64,000 bases of DNA from an uncultured Verrucomicrobiae bacterium (lineage in GTDB: Bacteria; Verrucomicrobiota; Verrucomicrobiia; Chthoniobacterales; JAATET01). Below the pieces are notes generated by a model. That model did not search any database. It was not told where the DNA came from and worked only from the letters and a program-made list of their open reading frames with translations. The first letter of the stretch is position 1. Each line of letters begins with the position of its first letter. The stretch is from the NCBI GenBank assembly GCA_963719495.1, contig CAVRCI010000002.1, forward strand, positions 544,001-608,000, read 5' to 3'. Positions 1,788 to 10,080 of the stretch are shown here, piece by piece. A program made the position numbers and the translations under genes.

Positions 1788-2150
1788 ATGACTCAAGCAG
1801 AACTCTATCTCCGCACTGATGAATTTCCACTATGGAATGGTTATAAGCGACCGAAAGTGCTTCGTCGCGACGAATTCGGACGTTTGATATTTGGCGATGG
1901 GTCATGGGTCGAATACACCGCATCCGGGGAAGCGAATACAGGGATGTATTCGCCAACGGAATGGCGAGCGGCAGAGGTGGATGCATGGAATAAAGGCAGA
2001 AGCGACCGGCTTGGCTTCCAGAAGATGAGCGCGGACTTCGTTGGCGATACTCGTCGTCACCCCGCGAGGGTTTGCGAACAATACCGCGGCGGGTTTTTCT
2101 CAGTGGAGAATTGGCCGAGGCGATCCCGCGTCGAACAGAAGTTTAGCTGA
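1788..2150 (+). CDS. Hypothetical protein
   Basis: 120-aa ATG-started ORF with natural-looking composition, convergent with the recombinase gene. No motif recognised. Confidence 0.35.
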   Translation: MTQAELYLRTDEFPLWNGYKRPKVLRRDEFGRLIFGDGSWVEYTASGEANTGMYSPTEWRAAEVDAWNKGRSDRLGFQKMSADFVGDTRRHPARVCEQYRGGFFSVENWPRRSRVEQKFS

Positions 2151-3867
2151 ACAGTCCGTCAATCGAGGCTCTCATGGAAGGATTGCTCAGAGAATCGCGC
2201 ATCCGATCCCATCGAAGTTTGGCCTGCAACAGGGTGTGGATCGGTTGAGCGAAATTGTAGGTTTTTCGCGTAGTTACCCGGCTCGCGTGCCCTGCAATTT
2301 TCGCCATAAAATCGACCGGGTCTTCGGCACGGGTGTGTTCTGCGAACGAATTGAGGGCTTTCCCGCGAAATATGAAATTCGAAAGATGCTTTTCTACAAA
2401 AGGAAGTGCTGAGAGACACGGGTCATGTGCCAGCGCAAGCCTAACTGACAGCCAAGTTATCCCCATACGACGCAAGTCATGAAGACGCGGTCGCTTTGAC
2501 CAGTGAAAATCTTTGCGGAGTAAGTCCGCGTAAGCGTTATGAATTTCCGCGTGATCGATCACTTCAGAGAGTAGCGTTCGATCTATACCCGCGAGATCCA
2601 AGAAAGTTCGATAGCGATCTGAGGTGGAAAGGGAAGTGATCCACTGTTGAATGAATTCCACGTCGGTTTCAGGCAGGAGATGTCCCAGAGGAAGACGGAA
2701 GTATGCGCATTTTGCGACTTTCGTGCGACCAAGGCAGAGTAGGGGAAAAACATCTTCGAAAAACCCTTCTGGCGTAACGCCAAACAGGCAACTCAGCCGC
2801 CTGCCGCAGCTTGTAATCAAGAGTATAACTCGACGAGCACAACACTCGGTTTGGTCCAATGATGGGTAAGGGCTATCGAGACCGAAGTGATTTCGAAAAG
2901 CATCTAGACCAACCAGATAAACTTTCAGGCTGCTCTGTCGCCGATAGCCCTCATCGAAGTGCGCTTTGAGTCGATCCACCATCTCCCTTGGACAGACGCG
3001 ATAGAGCAATTTGGCCGCGGAAGAATCGTGGGAGGTAAACGCGAAACGCCCTTGAGACTTCGATTCTTCTGACAGTCGCAAGACGAGGCGTGGAAGAGAT
3101 GCGAGAGTTCGAAGCAGCGAGAGTCCCGCAACCGCACCATTTGCACGGAGGTTTTGCCGGGTGATCCTCTTCCTACAGATTTGAACTAGCCAATGCGTGG
3201 CTTCACGATCTTTGCCAAGTGTGGCTCTGCTTTCTGCCTCATCCAAGATTTCTCCGATGTTCTCTCTGAGTTTCTCGTCTTTTAGGCATTCATTGATAGA
3301 CTTTTTCGTCTGGAAAAAGACCGGAAACTCATCCGCAATTCTTAGCCGCGAGCGGGATTCCTTTGAAATCACACCCTTCATCATGTCGAGGTCAAGCGAC
3401 ACCGGATTGGCACAGGTCAAGGTGCCGTTGACATATCCGATTGTAACCGAAGAAAAATGCTCAGCCGTATCTGCTTCCAGAAGTTTCCCGAGCGCTTGGA
3501 TGGGATCAACTTTAAAACCGAATTTGTAGTGTGATGCCTGGACCAAGAGGTCACTAATTTTACCTTCAGTCAGGATTGTTTTTAGATTGGGAGGCCCGTC
3601 AAATCCTCGAAAAGGATTCCAGACTATGCGCGGCCCGCCTTTCGTCTCGAGTTGGAGCCACTCGTCTTCGCAGACCCAAGCGGATTGCAAAACGATTGCC
3701 TCAAGCCCGCGTAGCCCAACAGGCAGGAGACGCACTCGAAGGAGGAAATCCCAGACGGTATGCGGGGATGCTTGAGTAGCGACTACCTCGTTTAGTGCGT
3801 TGGATAGTTGGCGTCTGCCTTCGGTGGAAGAGTAGCCGTCGCGTTGGCGGGACGATCTGGTTTTCAT
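2143..3867 (-). CDS. Large tyrosine recombinase/integrase-family protein (574 aa)
   Basis: The C-terminal catalytic set is complete: LLITSCGRRLSCL (R), GRTKV (K), LHDLRR (HxxR), IAGHAS (H), TRKTY (Y). The ATG at 3867 overlaps the upstream stop (ATGA). Confidence 0.8.
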   Translation of the reverse strand: MKTRSSRQRDGYSSTEGRRQLSNALNEVVATQASPHTVWDFLLRVRLLPVGLRGLEAIVLQSAWVCEDEWLQLETKGGPRIVWNPFRGFDGPPNLKTILTEGKISDLLVQASHYKFGFKVDPIQALGKLLEADTAEHFSSVTIGYVNGTLTCANPVSLDLDMMKGVISKESRSRLRIADEFPVFFQTKKSINECLKDEKLRENIGEILDEAESRATLGKDREATHWLVQICRKRITRQNLRANGAVAGLSLLRTLASLPRLVLRLSEESKSQGRFAFTSHDSSAAKLLYRVCPREMVDRLKAHFDEGYRRQSSLKVYLVGLDAFRNHFGLDSPYPSLDQTECCARRVILLITSCGRRLSCLFGVTPEGFFEDVFPLLCLGRTKVAKCAYFRLPLGHLLPETDVEFIQQWITSLSTSDRYRTFLDLAGIDRTLLSEVIDHAEIHNAYADLLRKDFHWSKRPRLHDLRRMGITWLSVRLALAHDPCLSALPFVEKHLSNFIFRGKALNSFAEHTRAEDPVDFMAKIAGHASRVTTRKTYNFAQPIHTLLQAKLRWDRMRDSLSNPSMRASIDGLFS

Positions 3868-6038
3868 AAGGTTGCCCAGGCGAAATTTAGTTTTGTTAGA
3901 AGATGCACCGCGGCTGCTTCGCATTCTTCATACATCACTGGCATGCGCTGCGAATCGGGAGATCTCGGACTGCGAGCACGAGATGGAAAATGATCATGGA
4001 TCGCCTGAATGGCGTCCTCTGCCAGGACGTCATCGTCGCGGAGGATCGTGTTGCTGTAATTGCGCATTGCTCTACGATGCAGGTATTGGAATGCCTCAGT
4101 GCGTGGGTTCGCGGCCAGAGAGTCGGATACCGTCCGGTGAATGGGAGGTAACTCCACGAGCTGATTTTCTTTAAGCGCCAAGAACCAATAAATGCGTTGG
4201 TCCACGTAATCGGCTCCTCTTAAACCGGTTTCCCGGAACCTTGCCAAATACTGGTGGAGCGAGCGGTTCAGGGTGAACAGCACCGAGCGAAGCGACTGCG
4301 TGTAAACGATCGTGCGAGAATATTCTTTCTCCCTAACATCTCGGATGATGTCGCGAGTGGAAATTCGCACTCGGGCGTTCAGGCGGAGGGGTTCGAACGC
4401 ATCCCTGTTGCGGGTAAATGTGAGCAGGTTCTCGGCTAACCGTGCGGCGGCAGCAATGACGTTGGAGGCGGCAATCAGCTCCTCCGCATTCTGTAGGCTC
4501 GGTGGCTGGATAAGATCGCCGACCGTTTCAAACAAAGTCGACAAGCATTCCGTAGTCGGACAAAGCGCACTCCCAGTCGGATCGAGACCCTGAGCGTCGC
4601 AGAAAAAATTAGGGTCGATCTCCGTTCGGCAAAGCTTCGTGATCACTGGCAAGCAGTTGCTTGGGTCATAGTGGATATAGTGCATCCAGCCCGGTCGGTT
4701 TTGCCGCAGTGCATTAATACCAAGTTCATAGTAAATTGCCGGAATCTTCGTCCACAGGGGAAAGTTATGGAGCAGTGCTGAGCATAGTGAGGGGATCGTG
4801 ATTCCGAGCGAGTTTGCTTCCAGCCACGCACTCGCTTCGCATTGCAGATCGGTGTTGCCCGCCTCGAGTTGGCGTTGTATTGCGGCGCCGATACCTTTTG
4901 TAGTAAACGAAACGAAGGTCTTGGTGGGGAGTCGGTGGATTGTCGTGTCAACGACCAATGAATCTTGCCATAGCTTAACTGGACGCTGAATGACAGCGCA
5001 CGCCGAGCGCAATTGGATATTCTGCGGAAGGATCTCCCAAGGTTTGACAGCGGAGGAAATTAGAAAAGCAACCGCCACCGCTCCCGGCTGTTCGAGCGAT
5101 GAGCACGCGGTCCTGAGCAGCGAGCGAAGCTCGGGAAAGCAGGGGATTCCGGGTCCGGCGACGCGACTCAGACTCGGAATTTTGTCTGAGTTCCGCAGCG
5201 CGTTTTCCGTAATTCCGACTGGCGTCATCGGTGTTCGGAGATTGTCCGGTTCCGAGAAGAAAAGGAATTTGCGAAGCCTGTTGGGGTATCCTCTAAGTTC
5301 GGACTCGATGGTAGTCTCATTCTCGCCGCGCAGAGCCACGCTGGCAGATGACCAGTTGCCCGAGATTCGGGTGAAGATGTCCAACATGGGTTTTTTTTCC
5401 CTTTGAGTCTCCGCATCAGCAAGCGAACGGAGTGCTAGGAGACGTCGGCGAGTAAACTCGGGGGAAATCGAGTCGCTCGTACATGCAAGTTTCTCCGCCG
5501 GCGTCATGTGGGTCGCATTGTTCGACGAATAATCCGAGGCTACGAGGTGACGATGTTGATCGAGTATCCGCTTCCGAACTGAACTCGAATCGATTTTGCC
5601 GTCGCCTTTCAGCCCATTCACAAGGCAGGTTGCAAAGACGAGATCGAGAGTCTCCCTCAACATCTCAAGGTGGATGGTGTTCCAAGCTATCAGCGGAGAT
5701 GCACCTGTCGATTGAGCTGTCCTGAGAAGCGTCGGCAGACTCGGCAAGTTTTCACACGGGTTTCTCGCAATAATGAATCCCAACGGACACTCATTCTCGT
5801 AAGGGCGCTCGAGGATTTGCTCTGGGGGAGCCATGGCAAATGCCGTTCGTAACTCAGCATGCAAAACGGCATCTTTCACGAACGGTAACGTGCCGATCAA
5901 AATTCTCCGGAGGCCGCGCGGCTTCTCTGCAGAGAAATACAGCGATTCGGGATTTTCTAGTCCGTCGAAGACGAGAAAATCGGCTCCAGCGATGGCCTTC
6001 CGTACGAGGTGAATGAGATGCGAGTCGTTGGCATTCAT
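3864..6038 (-). CDS. Large protein with degenerate tyrosine-recombinase-like motifs (724 aa)
   Basis: LLTFTRNRDAF is box-I-like and LHRRAMRNYSNTIL...AIQAIHDH is box-II-like. ATGA overlaps with both neighbours. Confidence 0.65.
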   Translation of the reverse strand: MNANDSHLIHLVRKAIAGADFLVFDGLENPESLYFSAEKPRGLRRILIGTLPFVKDAVLHAELRTAFAMAPPEQILERPYENECPLGFIIARNPCENLPSLPTLLRTAQSTGASPLIAWNTIHLEMLRETLDLVFATCLVNGLKGDGKIDSSSVRKRILDQHRHLVASDYSSNNATHMTPAEKLACTSDSISPEFTRRRLLALRSLADAETQREKKPMLDIFTRISGNWSSASVALRGENETTIESELRGYPNRLRKFLFFSEPDNLRTPMTPVGITENALRNSDKIPSLSRVAGPGIPCFPELRSLLRTACSSLEQPGAVAVAFLISSAVKPWEILPQNIQLRSACAVIQRPVKLWQDSLVVDTTIHRLPTKTFVSFTTKGIGAAIQRQLEAGNTDLQCEASAWLEANSLGITIPSLCSALLHNFPLWTKIPAIYYELGINALRQNRPGWMHYIHYDPSNCLPVITKLCRTEIDPNFFCDAQGLDPTGSALCPTTECLSTLFETVGDLIQPPSLQNAEELIAASNVIAAAARLAENLLTFTRNRDAFEPLRLNARVRISTRDIIRDVREKEYSRTIVYTQSLRSVLFTLNRSLHQYLARFRETGLRGADYVDQRIYWFLALKENQLVELPPIHRTVSDSLAANPRTEAFQYLHRRAMRNYSNTILRDDDVLAEDAIQAIHDHFPSRARSPRSPDSQRMPVMYEECEAAAVHLLTKLNFAWATL

Positions 6039-6463
6039 AGCTGATAATCAAAGGCGAGTTGTCTGCCAATTTGCCGGGCCTCGGCGGGCTTGGCGCCAAT
6101 TATTTCCCCCATCGCGGGTAGGAAGTGAGCGGCGAAAATAGTCCTCAGAGCTTCCGCGAGTAATTCCTCTCGAACTCGCTCGGAAAATCCAGCAATGGGT
6201 GCCAGAAGCTGGTTCTCGATCGTGACCTGAATCCTACAAATTTCGCCTCTTGTTCGAGACGAACGATCGAGAGTTGAAATCTTTTGATCACGCAGCTCAA
6301 GCAGAGCTTCTTTTAGGTGATTTTGGATAACCTGTTCAACCGCGGCCCGCTCGACACTTAAATAGGACATCACGGGGTCATCGATCGTCAATCGAGCCCC
6401 TATCCGAAGATGCGCAGGCAATTCTGCGCGGAGCTTTAGAATCGAAGGACTTTTAGCGCTCAT
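6035..6463 (-). CDS. Hypothetical protein (142 aa) in the recombinase operon
   Basis: ATG at 6463 has a GGAGGT Shine-Dalgarno at ~6472-6477 on the minus strand. The gene overlaps the xis-like stop and is coupled to the 724-aa gene. Confidence 0.65.
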   Translation of the reverse strand: MSAKSPSILKLRAELPAHLRIGARLTIDDPVMSYLSVERAAVEQVIQNHLKEALLELRDQKISTLDRSSRTRGEICRIQVTIENQLLAPIAGFSERVREELLAEALRTIFAAHFLPAMGEIIGAKPAEARQIGRQLAFDYQL

Positions 6464-6689
6464 CGCCAGACACCTCCGTTTGATTTGCTTGCGCCGCCTG
6501 CTTGCGCATCCAAGCGAGCAAACGCAAGCGATCGTTTTCTGAATATCGCCGGGAAGATTGTCGGTTTGGCCCTGACTTGATGCCGCTGACCCCGGCGCGC
6601 GCCATGAGACGAACGACACTTGTTCTGTGAAGGCCCAATTGTAAGCCGATATCATTTGCGGTAGAGTAGGTGTTCGATGAAGAGGTCAT
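6453..6689 (-). CDS. Small HTH DNA-binding protein, excisionase/AlpA/MerR-like (78 aa)
   Basis: YSTANDIGLQLGLHRTSVVRLMARAGV...SRRYSENDRL is a winged-HTH pattern typical of Xis/RDF proteins. It is the first gene of the operon. Confidence 0.7.
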   Translation of the reverse strand: MTSSSNTYSTANDIGLQLGLHRTSVVRLMARAGVSGIKSGPNRQSSRRYSENDRLRLLAWMRKQAAQANQTEVSGDER

Positions 6690-8614
6690 GCAAACGACAG
6701 AGCGTGACGGTAAAAAATGGCTCCCCTGAGATCGAGGAGCCCCCGGATGAGCGTGCTGCAATCATTCGAAAGAAATCCCTCTCCACGATTGCCGACATTG
6801 CCGGCGTCTGGGTAGGAGACGGGTGCTTCGCTGTCACGGTAGCGTTCTCGAGTCCTGTAGAGGCTCGATTCGCCGCAGGGATTTATGGAATCACCGCGGA
6901 CGACAAGTTGGCTCTGCGATCTCTCGCCGAGTTTCCCCGGTTTCCCGATCGAGCTTACTCCTGGACAGATATGTGCGGGGCGGACCGGGTGGGAGCGCAG
7001 TTTTTCCAGACGCTTCGTCTGGGGGCGTCAAAGGTGCGCTTCTCAAAATCGCCGCAAAAAGAGGTTATCGAGTGGCACCAGCGCATGAAGAAGGAGTTCT
7101 TCGGATGGTTTACTATTACCGCCTTTTTTGTGGATTCAGAGTCCGTCGGATGGATCGAAGGAACGGACGTTCTGGACAGGGATCTCGAGGGGTATTCAAA
7201 GATCACCGGAAAAAAGGGAGAGCACCTATTTTATGTAGGACTTGATCCCGAAATTACTTTGATGGCGATCCGTCAGCACATCGCCCCAGTCGGATTTATG
7301 ATGAGTGCCGCCGATATCGAAGTGACACTGTCCGGTATCTCGACTGGCTCAGCACCGGTTAGCCTTGTTACGCCGTCAAGGGACATTCATCGTGGTCCAG
7401 AGAGCTACCGGCAGAGGGCGAAGCGCCTTGCGCACACGTCTTATCGAATACTGGCGCATTCGACCTACGCACGATTCGACTCGATCGGATATGAGGAAAT
7501 TCCTGGCGGGTTGCCATTTGAGTCCCCGATCGAATATGAAGATCTTCCGCCCTTTCTGGTAGGACCCGCCGCGGCAGCGCGTGTTCTCGTTGCCCGGCAT
7601 CTTCTCCTTCCGCGAGATGGCGGTGGCTCGATTGATGAAATTCTCTACGCCGGGCGGCACGCCGTTCGCGATCGGCGGCATTTCGTTGCCGGATCCGAAA
7701 TCTGGCAAAAAGAAGGGATTCTCGAGGACGACGCGACCGACGAGTTGAAGCGGAAAGAGCTGGTAAATTTTTTCAGTCACCAACTGCTGGTTGAGTTACT
7801 TGATGCCTACTTCGATGGGCGACTGGATGCACAATTCGTGGATATTGTGGCGAGCTGGGACGAAGCAGTGGGACGGAAGGTCGATCTCGGGTGCCGTTTT
7901 TTCGGATCTGATCGTGAGGCGATTCAGTCATTGAACGAACGCCTGGAACTCGAGCCACGGGAACTGATGAGCGGGCGTTGGCACGCAGCAAGATTGAATG
8001 GTGAATCCATTTCCCATGCTCCGATGGGTCAATCGCCTCCGGAGCAATTCAACGATCGAAACCTCTATCTGACGCTGGAGGCCGAGGGGAGGTTGCTTCC
8101 GGCGGAGCTTCGTTGGGCGATCAAAAATTGCGACGCCTCACTTCTTCTCCGCGCCATCGGGGAGGATCGACTGGTGGCCTTGCTGGGCGAGCAGTTGCAG
8201 CGTCTTGAAGACGTATTCACCGTGATTCTCGAGACGCACATTCAGGAAAGCTGGAAAACTCAGGCTTGTTTCGTTGGGACAATGATCCGCAGGCGATTCG
8301 ATTTTTCAGGTGAGACGAATTTTTTCAAGGCGCGCGCGCTCGAACGGACGTGTGCTGGACTTCAACCGGCATTTTGCCGGATGCTTGCTTCGCTCGCACC
8401 GCGTTGCATTTTGGAAAACATGGCAATTTTGCTGACCGCCGGCGATCCACCGTATCCAGTCGCGATTTGGGATCGAAAATGGGTGATCGAGTCTTTCAAA
8501 AAGTTCGTCCGGAGCCACGGTCCCCGCATGTATGGGCAGGTTATAAAATCGCAATCCAAGCGCTCGAAATCAGATGGAATGTCTTTCGACGAGAATCGTC
8601 ATTCTTCGTCGTGA
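6677..8614 (+). CDS. Hypothetical protein (up to 645 aa; start uncertain)
   Basis: Long ORF in AT-richer DNA, divergent from the xis operon and convergent with the integrase. No family recognised. Confidence 0.6.
   Translation: MKRSCKRQSVTVKNGSPEIEEPPDERAAIIRKKSLSTIADIAGVWVGDGCFAVTVAFSSPVEARFAAGIYGITADDKLALRSLAEFPRFPDRAYSWTDMCGADRVGAQFFQTLRLGASKVRFSKSPQKEVIEWHQRMKKEFFGWFTITAFFVDSESVGWIEGTDVLDRDLEGYSKITGKKGEHLFYVGLDPEITLMAIRQHIAPVGFMMSAADIEVTLSGISTGSAPVSLVTPSRDIHRGPESYRQRAKRLAHTSYRILAHSTYARFDSIGYEEIPGGLPFESPIEYEDLPPFLVGPAAAARVLVARHLLLPRDGGGSIDEILYAGRHAVRDRRHFVAGSEIWQKEGILEDDATDELKRKELVNFFSHQLLVELLDAYFDGRLDAQFVDIVASWDEAVGRKVDLGCRFFGSDREAIQSLNERLELEPRELMSGRWHAARLNGESISHAPMGQSPPEQFNDRNLYLTLEAEGRLLPAELRWAIKNCDASLLLRAIGEDRLVALLGEQLQRLEDVFTVILETHIQESWKTQACFVGTMIRRRFDFSGETNFFKARALERTCAGLQPAFCRMLASLAPRCILENMAILLTAGDPPYPVAIWDRKWVIESFKKFVRSHGPRMYGQVIKSQSKRSKSDGMSFDENRHSSS
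6693..6721 (-). promoter_or_regulatory. Shared upstream motif, copy 1 (before the xis-like gene)
   Basis: AACGACAGAGCGTGACGGTAAAAAATGGC on the + strand, starting 3 nt from the minus-strand ATG at 6689. Near-identical to 9835-9862. Confidence 0.75.
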
Positions 8615-9831
8615 CGAAGAAATCCTGCGTAATATCGATCAATCATCGCGACGCTTGTTCCCATTTCTCTCGCGAGGCGGATTGACGTCCATTTGTCGAC
8701 GAATGCGCGCCGGGTCGCGAACGTGTGTCGAAAGTCGAGGCAAGTCCAGGGGAGTCCACGCGCTTCATTGGCGGCCCGCAGCGCGGAACTGAAGTTGTCA
8801 GCATCCCACTGGGCTCCACGTGGACTTGGCACGAGCCAGCGTCCCTGGAGAGTGATCAGGTGCTTTTTCAAAAACTCGCGTAGCGTCGGGGAAATCGTCA
8901 CGGATCGATGACTTTTGGAAGTCTTGAGCGAGGATTGGCGGTCGCATTCGGCATCATAGCGGGTCGTGATCGACAGGACCTTGAAATCGGCCGAGATCGA
9001 ATCGCGATCAAGCCAGAGCACTTCCGAACGGCGAAGCCCTGCCTCGATCATGATTTTAACCGCAGCGGTCAAACTCGGATCGGAAGCGACAGCGGAGTAT
9101 TGCTGCTCGATCTCTGGAGATTCGGGAGTCTGCCTCAGGAAGCTGATCTCGCTCTTTTCGCCGAGATAACTCGGTAGAGCAGCGACCGGGTTGGGCGTGT
9201 GAAAGTTCGTCACGGACATCATTCCATTCGCCAAGCAGTGCTCGAAAAAATGATGCAGAACTTCGCGGTAGTGCCGCTTCGTTTTCGTAGATGCCGGAGA
9301 CTCGCCATCGCGCGCTTTGCATCCGGCAACGAGGTCGGCGAGGAGAGTGGAGGGGATATCCTCCAAAGTCTTTCCGCGGAACTTGCCGCGCTCGGACGCA
9401 AGATGGGCGAAGCTGAGCGACGTGGCATCCGCGACGAGCGCGTCTCCAAACAACACGCGGAGTACCTTGATCTTCCCGGCGACCCAGCGGGCGCTGTTCG
9501 ATTCGGAAATATGCCGGTAGTAACTGCCGATGGCGGTCTTGAGAGGCGTGTGCGGCTTTTGGGCGCCAGGCAGTGCATCCTCAGCCACGGCTTTGGCAGA
9601 CGCCAACCCGGACAGATTTGGAGCTTCAGGCAACGTGGCGAGGATTGTCTCCGGAAGTTCGACAGCGGCGACGCGGGGATCGAGGAGCGCGAGGACTCGC
9701 TCGAGCTTATCGGAAATGAGCTGCGCTTCCGCGCGGTCCTCGGTGCCGAGACTTTGGCGAACCGGTTTCTGGGAACCAGGCACGTAATACTGGATCCAGA
9801 ACTTCCGGCGGCGTTGGGTGATCGATGGCAT
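8599..9831 (-). CDS. int: Phage/genomic-island tyrosine integrase
   Basis: N-terminal arm-binding segment (FWIQYY...RQSLGT), then AGLRRSEVLWL, LKTSKSHRSV, DFRHTFAT and MGTSVAMIDRYY. Adjacent to a tRNA 3' end. Confidence 0.92.
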   Translation of the reverse strand: MPSITQRRRKFWIQYYVPGSQKPVRQSLGTEDRAEAQLISDKLERVLALLDPRVAAVELPETILATLPEAPNLSGLASAKAVAEDALPGAQKPHTPLKTAIGSYYRHISESNSARWVAGKIKVLRVLFGDALVADATSLSFAHLASERGKFRGKTLEDIPSTLLADLVAGCKARDGESPASTKTKRHYREVLHHFFEHCLANGMMSVTNFHTPNPVAALPSYLGEKSEISFLRQTPESPEIEQQYSAVASDPSLTAAVKIMIEAGLRRSEVLWLDRDSISADFKVLSITTRYDAECDRQSSLKTSKSHRSVTISPTLREFLKKHLITLQGRWLVPSPRGAQWDADNFSSALRAANEARGLPWTCLDFRHTFATRRAFVDKWTSIRLAREMGTSVAMIDRYYAGFLRHDEE

Positions 9832-9964: not shown

Positions 9965-9999
9965 AAAAGCCCTGTAACTCAGAGAGTTACAGGGCTTTT
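9965..9999 (-). terminator. Perfect 16-bp hairpin downstream of tRNA-fMet (intrinsic terminator-like)
   Basis: AAAAGCCCTGTAACTC-AGA-GAGTTACAGGGCTTTT, with A/T runs at both ends. Confidence 0.8.
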
Positions 10000-10003
10000 A
10001 AAT

Positions 10004-10080
<77 letters not shown>

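Follow-up and report, generated by a model that had tools for sequence, protein, structure and literature searches.

The window analysed here, a 64,000-nucleotide stretch from an uncultured Verrucomicrobiae bacterium (assembly GCA_963719495.1, contig CAVRCI010000002.1, positions 544,001 to 608,000), carries a minus-strand operon of four genes. The last two encode large proteins, termed here subunits A and B, which constitute a real, unannotated module that is conserved across two phyla. The features of the operon, in window coordinates, are as follows.

6453..6689, minus strand: open reading frame (ORF) of 78 amino acids (aa), an excisionase-like helix-turn-helix (HTH) gene, with Pfam HTH matches in relatives only
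6035..6463, minus strand: ORF of 142 aa, a small-protein gene
3864..6038, minus strand: subunit A gene, 724 aa, with a helical N-terminal part followed by two tandem tyrosine recombinase (YR) catalytic folds
4674..5162, minus strand: fold 1 of subunit A (residues ~293-455), which has no conserved R/K/H/R and ends in the invariant Y454 (codon 4677-4679)
3882..4574, minus strand: fold 2 of subunit A (residues ~489-719), in which R543, K571, R659 and H683 are conserved and which has no Tyr of its own
2143..3867, minus strand: subunit B gene, 574 aa, with an N-terminal domain (residues 1-170) and then a core-binding and catalytic YR unit (residues ~208-555)

The original prediction, a model's first reading of this DNA, described all four genes as translationally coupled. 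The ORFs are present, and ATGA overlaps join the 142-aa gene to that of subunit A (6035-6038) and subunit A to subunit B (3864-3867), but the junction between the HTH and 142-aa genes is an 11-nt overlap of another kind. None of the four proteins (78, 142, 724 and 574 aa) has a significant match in Pfam or NCBIfam.

The top 29 structural matches of the AlphaFold model of subunit A (pLDDT 89) are all YRs or type IB topoisomerases, and structural comparison places two YR catalytic folds in the chain, at residues ~293-455 and ~489-719, as had been suspected. Neither fold holds the full catalytic set: fold 1 supplies only a Tyr, and fold 2 only R, K, R and H. In an alignment of 41 subunit A sequences (16-57% identity, 37 non-redundant at 50%), Y454 is present in 41/41, R543, R659 and G489 in 40/40 each, K571 in 39/40 and H683 in 37/40. 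R543, K571, R659 and H683 occupy the R-K-R-H positions of fold 2, where a Tyr lies 5-16 residues past H683 in just 3 of 39 sequences. Y454 is the sole column of the family without a gap or substitution and is still found in 41/41 in two other alignment modes, the next Tyr column reaching 28/41. Residues 453-456 fall at the nucleophile of Tn1549 Int (residues 297-452 of subunit A align with 189-376, and the title of the entry names Y379), a placement extrapolated from the ends of the structural-alignment range rather than from residue-level superposition. Extrapolated in the same way, with the usual residue numbers of those proteins, they would also lie at the nucleophiles of TelK, TelA, HP1 Int, XerH and three type IB topoisomerases.

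The retention of R-K-R-H in fold 2 and of an invariant Tyr in fold 1 suggests that subunit A is probably not dead. Fold 1 is likely to donate Tyr454 into the R-K-R-H pocket of fold 2, giving a split active site within one chain. This would resemble the arrangement of Flp-type, trans-cleaving YRs, in which one subunit gives its Tyr to the active site of another, so that R-K-H-R of one fold acts with the Tyr of a second. In Flp the two folds are identical, separate subunits, whereas here they are specialized domains of the same chain. The central module of subunit A had been described as eroded, with the whole operon credited with one intact active site and a dead scaffold. The Tyr of that supposedly eroded module (in the motif MHY) is the invariant Y454, and what the family conserves is the pattern of a second, composite site.

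Subunit B has the catalytic fold and R-K-H-R-H/W-Y residues of the tyrosine recombinase superfamily. R357, K383, H463, R466 and Y537 are invariant in 12/12 relatives and H527 is present in 10/12, in agreement with the complete C-terminal R-K-HxxR-H-Y set that had been read in the protein. An N-terminal half-site read there is not confirmed: among the three closest homologues R54 is replaced by Pro in two and K76 is lost in one. Residues 1-170 show an order of helices and hairpins compatible with a YR catalytic fold, contain no conserved Cys clusters and lie outside the region covered by the top structural matches. Atlas family sets for this N terminus are all of YR type (score 0.86), which we take as a lead only. 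Profile-profile tests find no YR fold there, yet are equally blind to the structurally supported folds of subunit A. A fourth YR fold at the N terminus of subunit B is unproven.

By profile search, members of the A family occur in five of the 401 genomes examined from the host's class and in six of 301 from its order, the window's own genome being counted each time; an initial four-sequence profile had found the window alone (1/401). The window's genome holds three divergent copies of the module, on contigs C2, C7 and C15. Subunit B directly follows subunit A in all 11 loci opened in the host's class, with a 4-nt overlap in nine; one of these A genes is frameshifted, and two of the loci are nearly identical. 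Five of the 11 have a conventional integrase upstream, three of them at tRNA-Met and two of the C15 type, and the C15-type locus of the window's genome adjoins a tRNA-Leu fragment. Three loci with ample upstream sequence (G000:C7, G714 and G749) have no integrase there, and the contigs of another three end too early to judge. A further candidate family member, G714:C9, was dropped (E 9.8e-4, five stops).

The module extends to the Pseudomonadota, for which the Atlas lists clusters of 764-850 aa at 0.98. Among 301 Pseudomonadota genomes there were eight weak matches, one of them to an 894-aa gene coupled by ATGA to a gene for a 1,026-aa YR. The other seven were dropped; the one of them that was checked has a phosphoglycerate-mutase-like sequence. 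Among 250 Gammaproteobacteria genomes searched with the 894-aa protein, five gave a match, as did 46 plasmids, of which 41 are from Acinetobacter. Both A and B halves are present in 7/7 opened Pseudomonadota loci (matches in G1396 and G1324 lie outside this count), and in three they are fused into one ORF, with lengths of 1,803, 1,825 and at least 1,432 aa. Against the A profile these relatives score a probability of 92.9 (E 3.8e-7, 261 columns); they align a Tyr to Y454 in 6/6 covering rows and keep R, K, R and GH, and their B halves match subunit B with a probability of 98.7. Fusion in some loci and coupling in others point to A and B acting as a unit. Of the original prediction, a heteromeric multi-YR machine, the conserved co-occurrence of the two large proteins and two YR folds in subunit A are supported.

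One fused gene, on the Acinetobacter lwoffii plasmid pALWEK1.1 (L083:11350-15648), has an N terminus that is apparently cut by an IS3 insertion. We considered the fused protein as a replicase of Acinetobacter plasmids and dropped the idea, as pALWEK1.1 has two annotated Rep genes in the region fetched.

HTH identity of the 78-aa protein, originally called xis-like, is supported through relatives: the G714 copy matches PF12728 (E 5.9e-7) and three of five relatives have a Pfam HTH, although the window's protein itself has no Pfam match. A small ORF occupies the position of the 142-aa gene in most loci, with sequences hardly related to one another. The 142-aa protein looks ribbon-helix-helix (RHH)-like by eye only, and Pfam gives no support for an RHH. 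In two Gammaproteobacteria loci the small gene ahead of subunit A (L085:11542-12018 and L086:10707-11306) looks ParB-like by eye rather than RHH-like; neither has a Pfam match.

The operon lies in an island with its own integrase and the following additional features.

8599..9831, minus strand: conventional tyrosine integrase, 410 aa (PF00589, E 2.5e-9)
9993..10080, minus strand: tRNA-Met(CAT) at 10004-10080 with the att core at 9993-10050
6682..6716, plus strand: leader repeat copy 1, immediately before the HTH start codon
9824..9858, plus strand: leader repeat copy 2, 31/35 identical to copy 1, immediately before the start codon of the integrase
6677..8614, plus strand: antisense ORF of 645 aa between the integrase and HTH genes, overlapping both ends

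The integrase gene adjoins tRNA-Met. The att core spans the 3' part of this tRNA gene, and a second copy (56/58 nt) lies ~85 kb away on the same contig (G000:C2:469022-469079), a repeat that the integrase alone accounts for. The module sits inside a 22.5-kb block of 54% GC, the remainder of the att-bounded interval having 65% GC. Within that interval ~62 kb (G000:C2:469080-531500) have a host-like GC content of 65% and, in the parts read, sugar-use genes; from this host-like composition the island may be composite or include captured chromosomal DNA. Searches for an empty site recovered none, the contigs of relatives breaking or differing at the site, and gave no element ends that would discriminate between the mechanisms discussed below. 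Just past the 3' end of tRNA-Met is a perfect 16-bp inverted repeat (window 9965-9999), probably its terminator.

The islands of G594 and G542 have shorter leader repeats of their own at the same two positions. Alignment scores in this comparison are 54, 30 and 28, against a 99th percentile of 25 and a maximum of 33 for shuffled sequences. In these three islands, one operator or binding site is thus probably common to the integrase and the operon. Farther upstream of the integrase, short direct repeats resemble arm-type sites. The 645-aa antisense ORF has no family match, and G594 and G542 have ORFs of similar size (636 and 614 aa) at this position.

Neither Pfam nor NCBIfam returned a relevant family for the window proteins or for 44 A and 12 B members, and no family in either collection fits the A-B pair. 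PDB sequence searches gave no match, nor did Foldseek against PDB and BFVD at E<=0.001, although YRs ranked highest. Pattern scans of genome and metagenome contigs, among which records close to the window may be lacking, yielded no confirmed relative, and tblastn searches of plasmids with A, B and one distant A produced chance matches only. Neither a YR with a tandem split site nor this pair is described in the literature searched, which lacks most subscription journals, and the part of a YR subgroup survey available to us (PMC8138268) has no such subgroup. With no family model for subunit A, islands marked by the A-B pair are overlooked by annotation.

Several described systems resemble the module in outline. 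SE elements, reported from Gammaproteobacteria only, need all four of intA, tfp, intB and srap; the Tfp protein has a YR fold that lacks RHRY (PMC10214605). GMT has three genes and a circular intermediate (bioRxiv 10.1101/2023.03.28.534373). With both, the module shares an operon in which a YR-fold protein without RHRY precedes a large active YR and is accompanied by a small helper, and islands with defence cargo; copy-type transfer, as proposed below, would be a further likeness. It differs in that the small gene lies upstream rather than downstream, an HTH gene is added, subunit A has two catalytic folds and a conserved Tyr, and A-B fusions exist. The order is int-(antisense ORF)-HTH-small-A-B here and intA-tfp-intB-srap, at the element end, there. 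SE and GMT are marked by 13-19 bp terminal inverted repeats, a 6-bp footprint and strand-biased circularization without an empty site. Profiles of A and B against two Tfp, two IntB and two Srap proteins from two SEs gave a best E of 0.35, with only generic YR signal, and PF13009 or the GMT model matched none of the 44 A and 12 B members.

GInts (ginABCD) likewise combine three YR-type genes with a small helper, have one YR, GinC, that lacks the first catalytic Arg, and have a wide host range (PMC5385486). Their gene order is active-active-defective-small, and the third YR here is instead a detachable tRNA integrase; A and B profiles against GinA-D of one E. coli GInt show no homology (best E 0.055). 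Dead YR-fold subunits as such are no novelty, as Tfp and GinC had already been so described. Nor does the presence of a conventional integrase imply that A and B do a different job. In Tsy (YRec-HTH-TnsF), an ordinary integrase is followed by an HTH and a large active YR, and a single reaction depends on the catalytic activity of both YRs (PMC10293859). By description, TnsF, which targets comM, carries zinc fingers along with core-binding domains in tandem, and Tsy has no counterpart of subunit A; our island is at tRNA-Met, and the helix/hairpin N terminus of subunit B is free of conserved Cys clusters. RIT and Tn554 elements, marked by tandem YRs with a single catalytic domain and a PF00589-type match, also differ: neither A nor B matches PF00589 or an NCBIfam YR model, and A contains two catalytic folds. 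YR machines that are heteromeric and include defective folds are therefore already known. The A-B module is alike in outline but, by its profiles against two SEs and one GInt and by its gene order, belongs to neither kind. It is stranger than first proposed in that a second, composite active site is probable, and it is less unique in that dead YR folds in operons are known.

As a full account we tentatively favour, at somewhat less than even confidence, a two-site heteromeric recombinase that mobilizes its element by one strand exchange. A and B would form one YR machine, which in some Pseudomonadota is a fused protein of ~1,800 aa, carrying two working sites, one in B and one composite in A, in place of the four of a YR tetramer. 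Two fixed sites would make one pair of cuts, as opposed to the two sequential pairs of the tetramer, and hence a single strand exchange at the element's ends. Replication would then resolve the product into a circle, the copy-out route proposed for SE elements. The HTH and small proteins would act as helpers or regulators and the tRNA integrase as a partner in some islands, not an obligatory one. It is possible, if rather doubtful, that the module represents an undescribed cross-phylum recombinase class, in which a YR tetramer is hard-wired into a heterodimer or ~1,800-aa chain with four catalytic folds and two working sites (one conventional, one from two domains of the same chain) and performs one directional strand exchange.

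Half-of-the-sites activity and the donation of Tyr in cis or in trans are central questions for YRs, and a natural protein with one domain committed to donating and another to accepting the Tyr would make both testable by single mutants. A one-chain asymmetric recombinase could serve as a useful template for engineering non-palindromic, directional recombination, and the arrangement could bring to light a new mode of island mobility.

The main rival, which we consider unlikely, is that A and B act as a replication nickase or as a MOB_M-like relaxase of YR type. In this view the integrase would excise the island, and A and B, with the small protein as accessory, would nick an origin for mobilization or circle copying, the two tyrosines serving initiation and termination. 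The order of integrase, xis-like HTH, small DNA-binding protein and nickase resembles mobilizable elements, and the window island has a normal att repeat. The occurrence of the module beside two different integrase/tRNA combinations would fit a separable job. MOB_M relaxases (TcpM, MobK, SGI1 MpsA/MpsB) are YR-related nicking proteins of islands, 96% of them lie near an integrase, and they were often annotated as integrases (10.64898/2026.01.13.699239). Set against this are the three loci without a nearby integrase, the lack of an oriT-like conserved site in the one non-coding comparison made, and the failure of Pfam to support an RHH in the small protein. By description, known MOB_M relaxases are also set apart as small, single-domain proteins that are not known to have a tandem split-site subunit.

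Less likely than a relaxase or nickase, and in our view improbable, is a catalytically dead subunit A that targets or scaffolds, like SE Tfp or GInt GinC, while B alone cleaves. Some observations do speak for this alternative: neither A fold has a full set alone, the His of HxxR is variable (H654 in 16/40), which also weighs against a composite site in A, and the conserved Arg and Lys could merely bind phosphates. Dead YR-fold subunits are, moreover, essential in SE and GInt (PMC10214605, PMC5385486). A dead subunit would leave it unexplained that the one column free of gaps and substitutions is a Tyr where the nucleophile lies, and that this Tyr persists in both phyla. Also below the relaxase or nickase, and very unlikely, is a role in resolving or maintaining the element, as a dimer resolvase, invertase or protelomerase-like hairpin-forming enzyme for which one pair of cuts suffices. 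Protelomerases, which act as a dimer with two sites, are among the structural matches and Atlas neighbours, and some relatives of the module are on plasmids that have their own Rep.

The other two copies in the window's genome, at G000:C15:163303-169554 (L003) and G000:C7:205473-210400 (L017), are very divergent, and the C7 copy, with no adjoining integrase, closes a low-GC block that has tRNA-Pro at its start. The island cargo (L001:11558-17854) includes tandem ORFs of 891 and 1,164 aa, possibly one large defence-type gene split by a stop or frameshift. Tyrosine recombinases of ~200 aa that consist of a catalytic domain only recur downstream of the module (L001:6326-6928; L017:618-1199 and 6025-6642; L026:10660-11283; L030:2842-3465). 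They are often accompanied by a Fic-like gene and an AAA-type ATPase, both named by eye, and are a candidate resolvase family.
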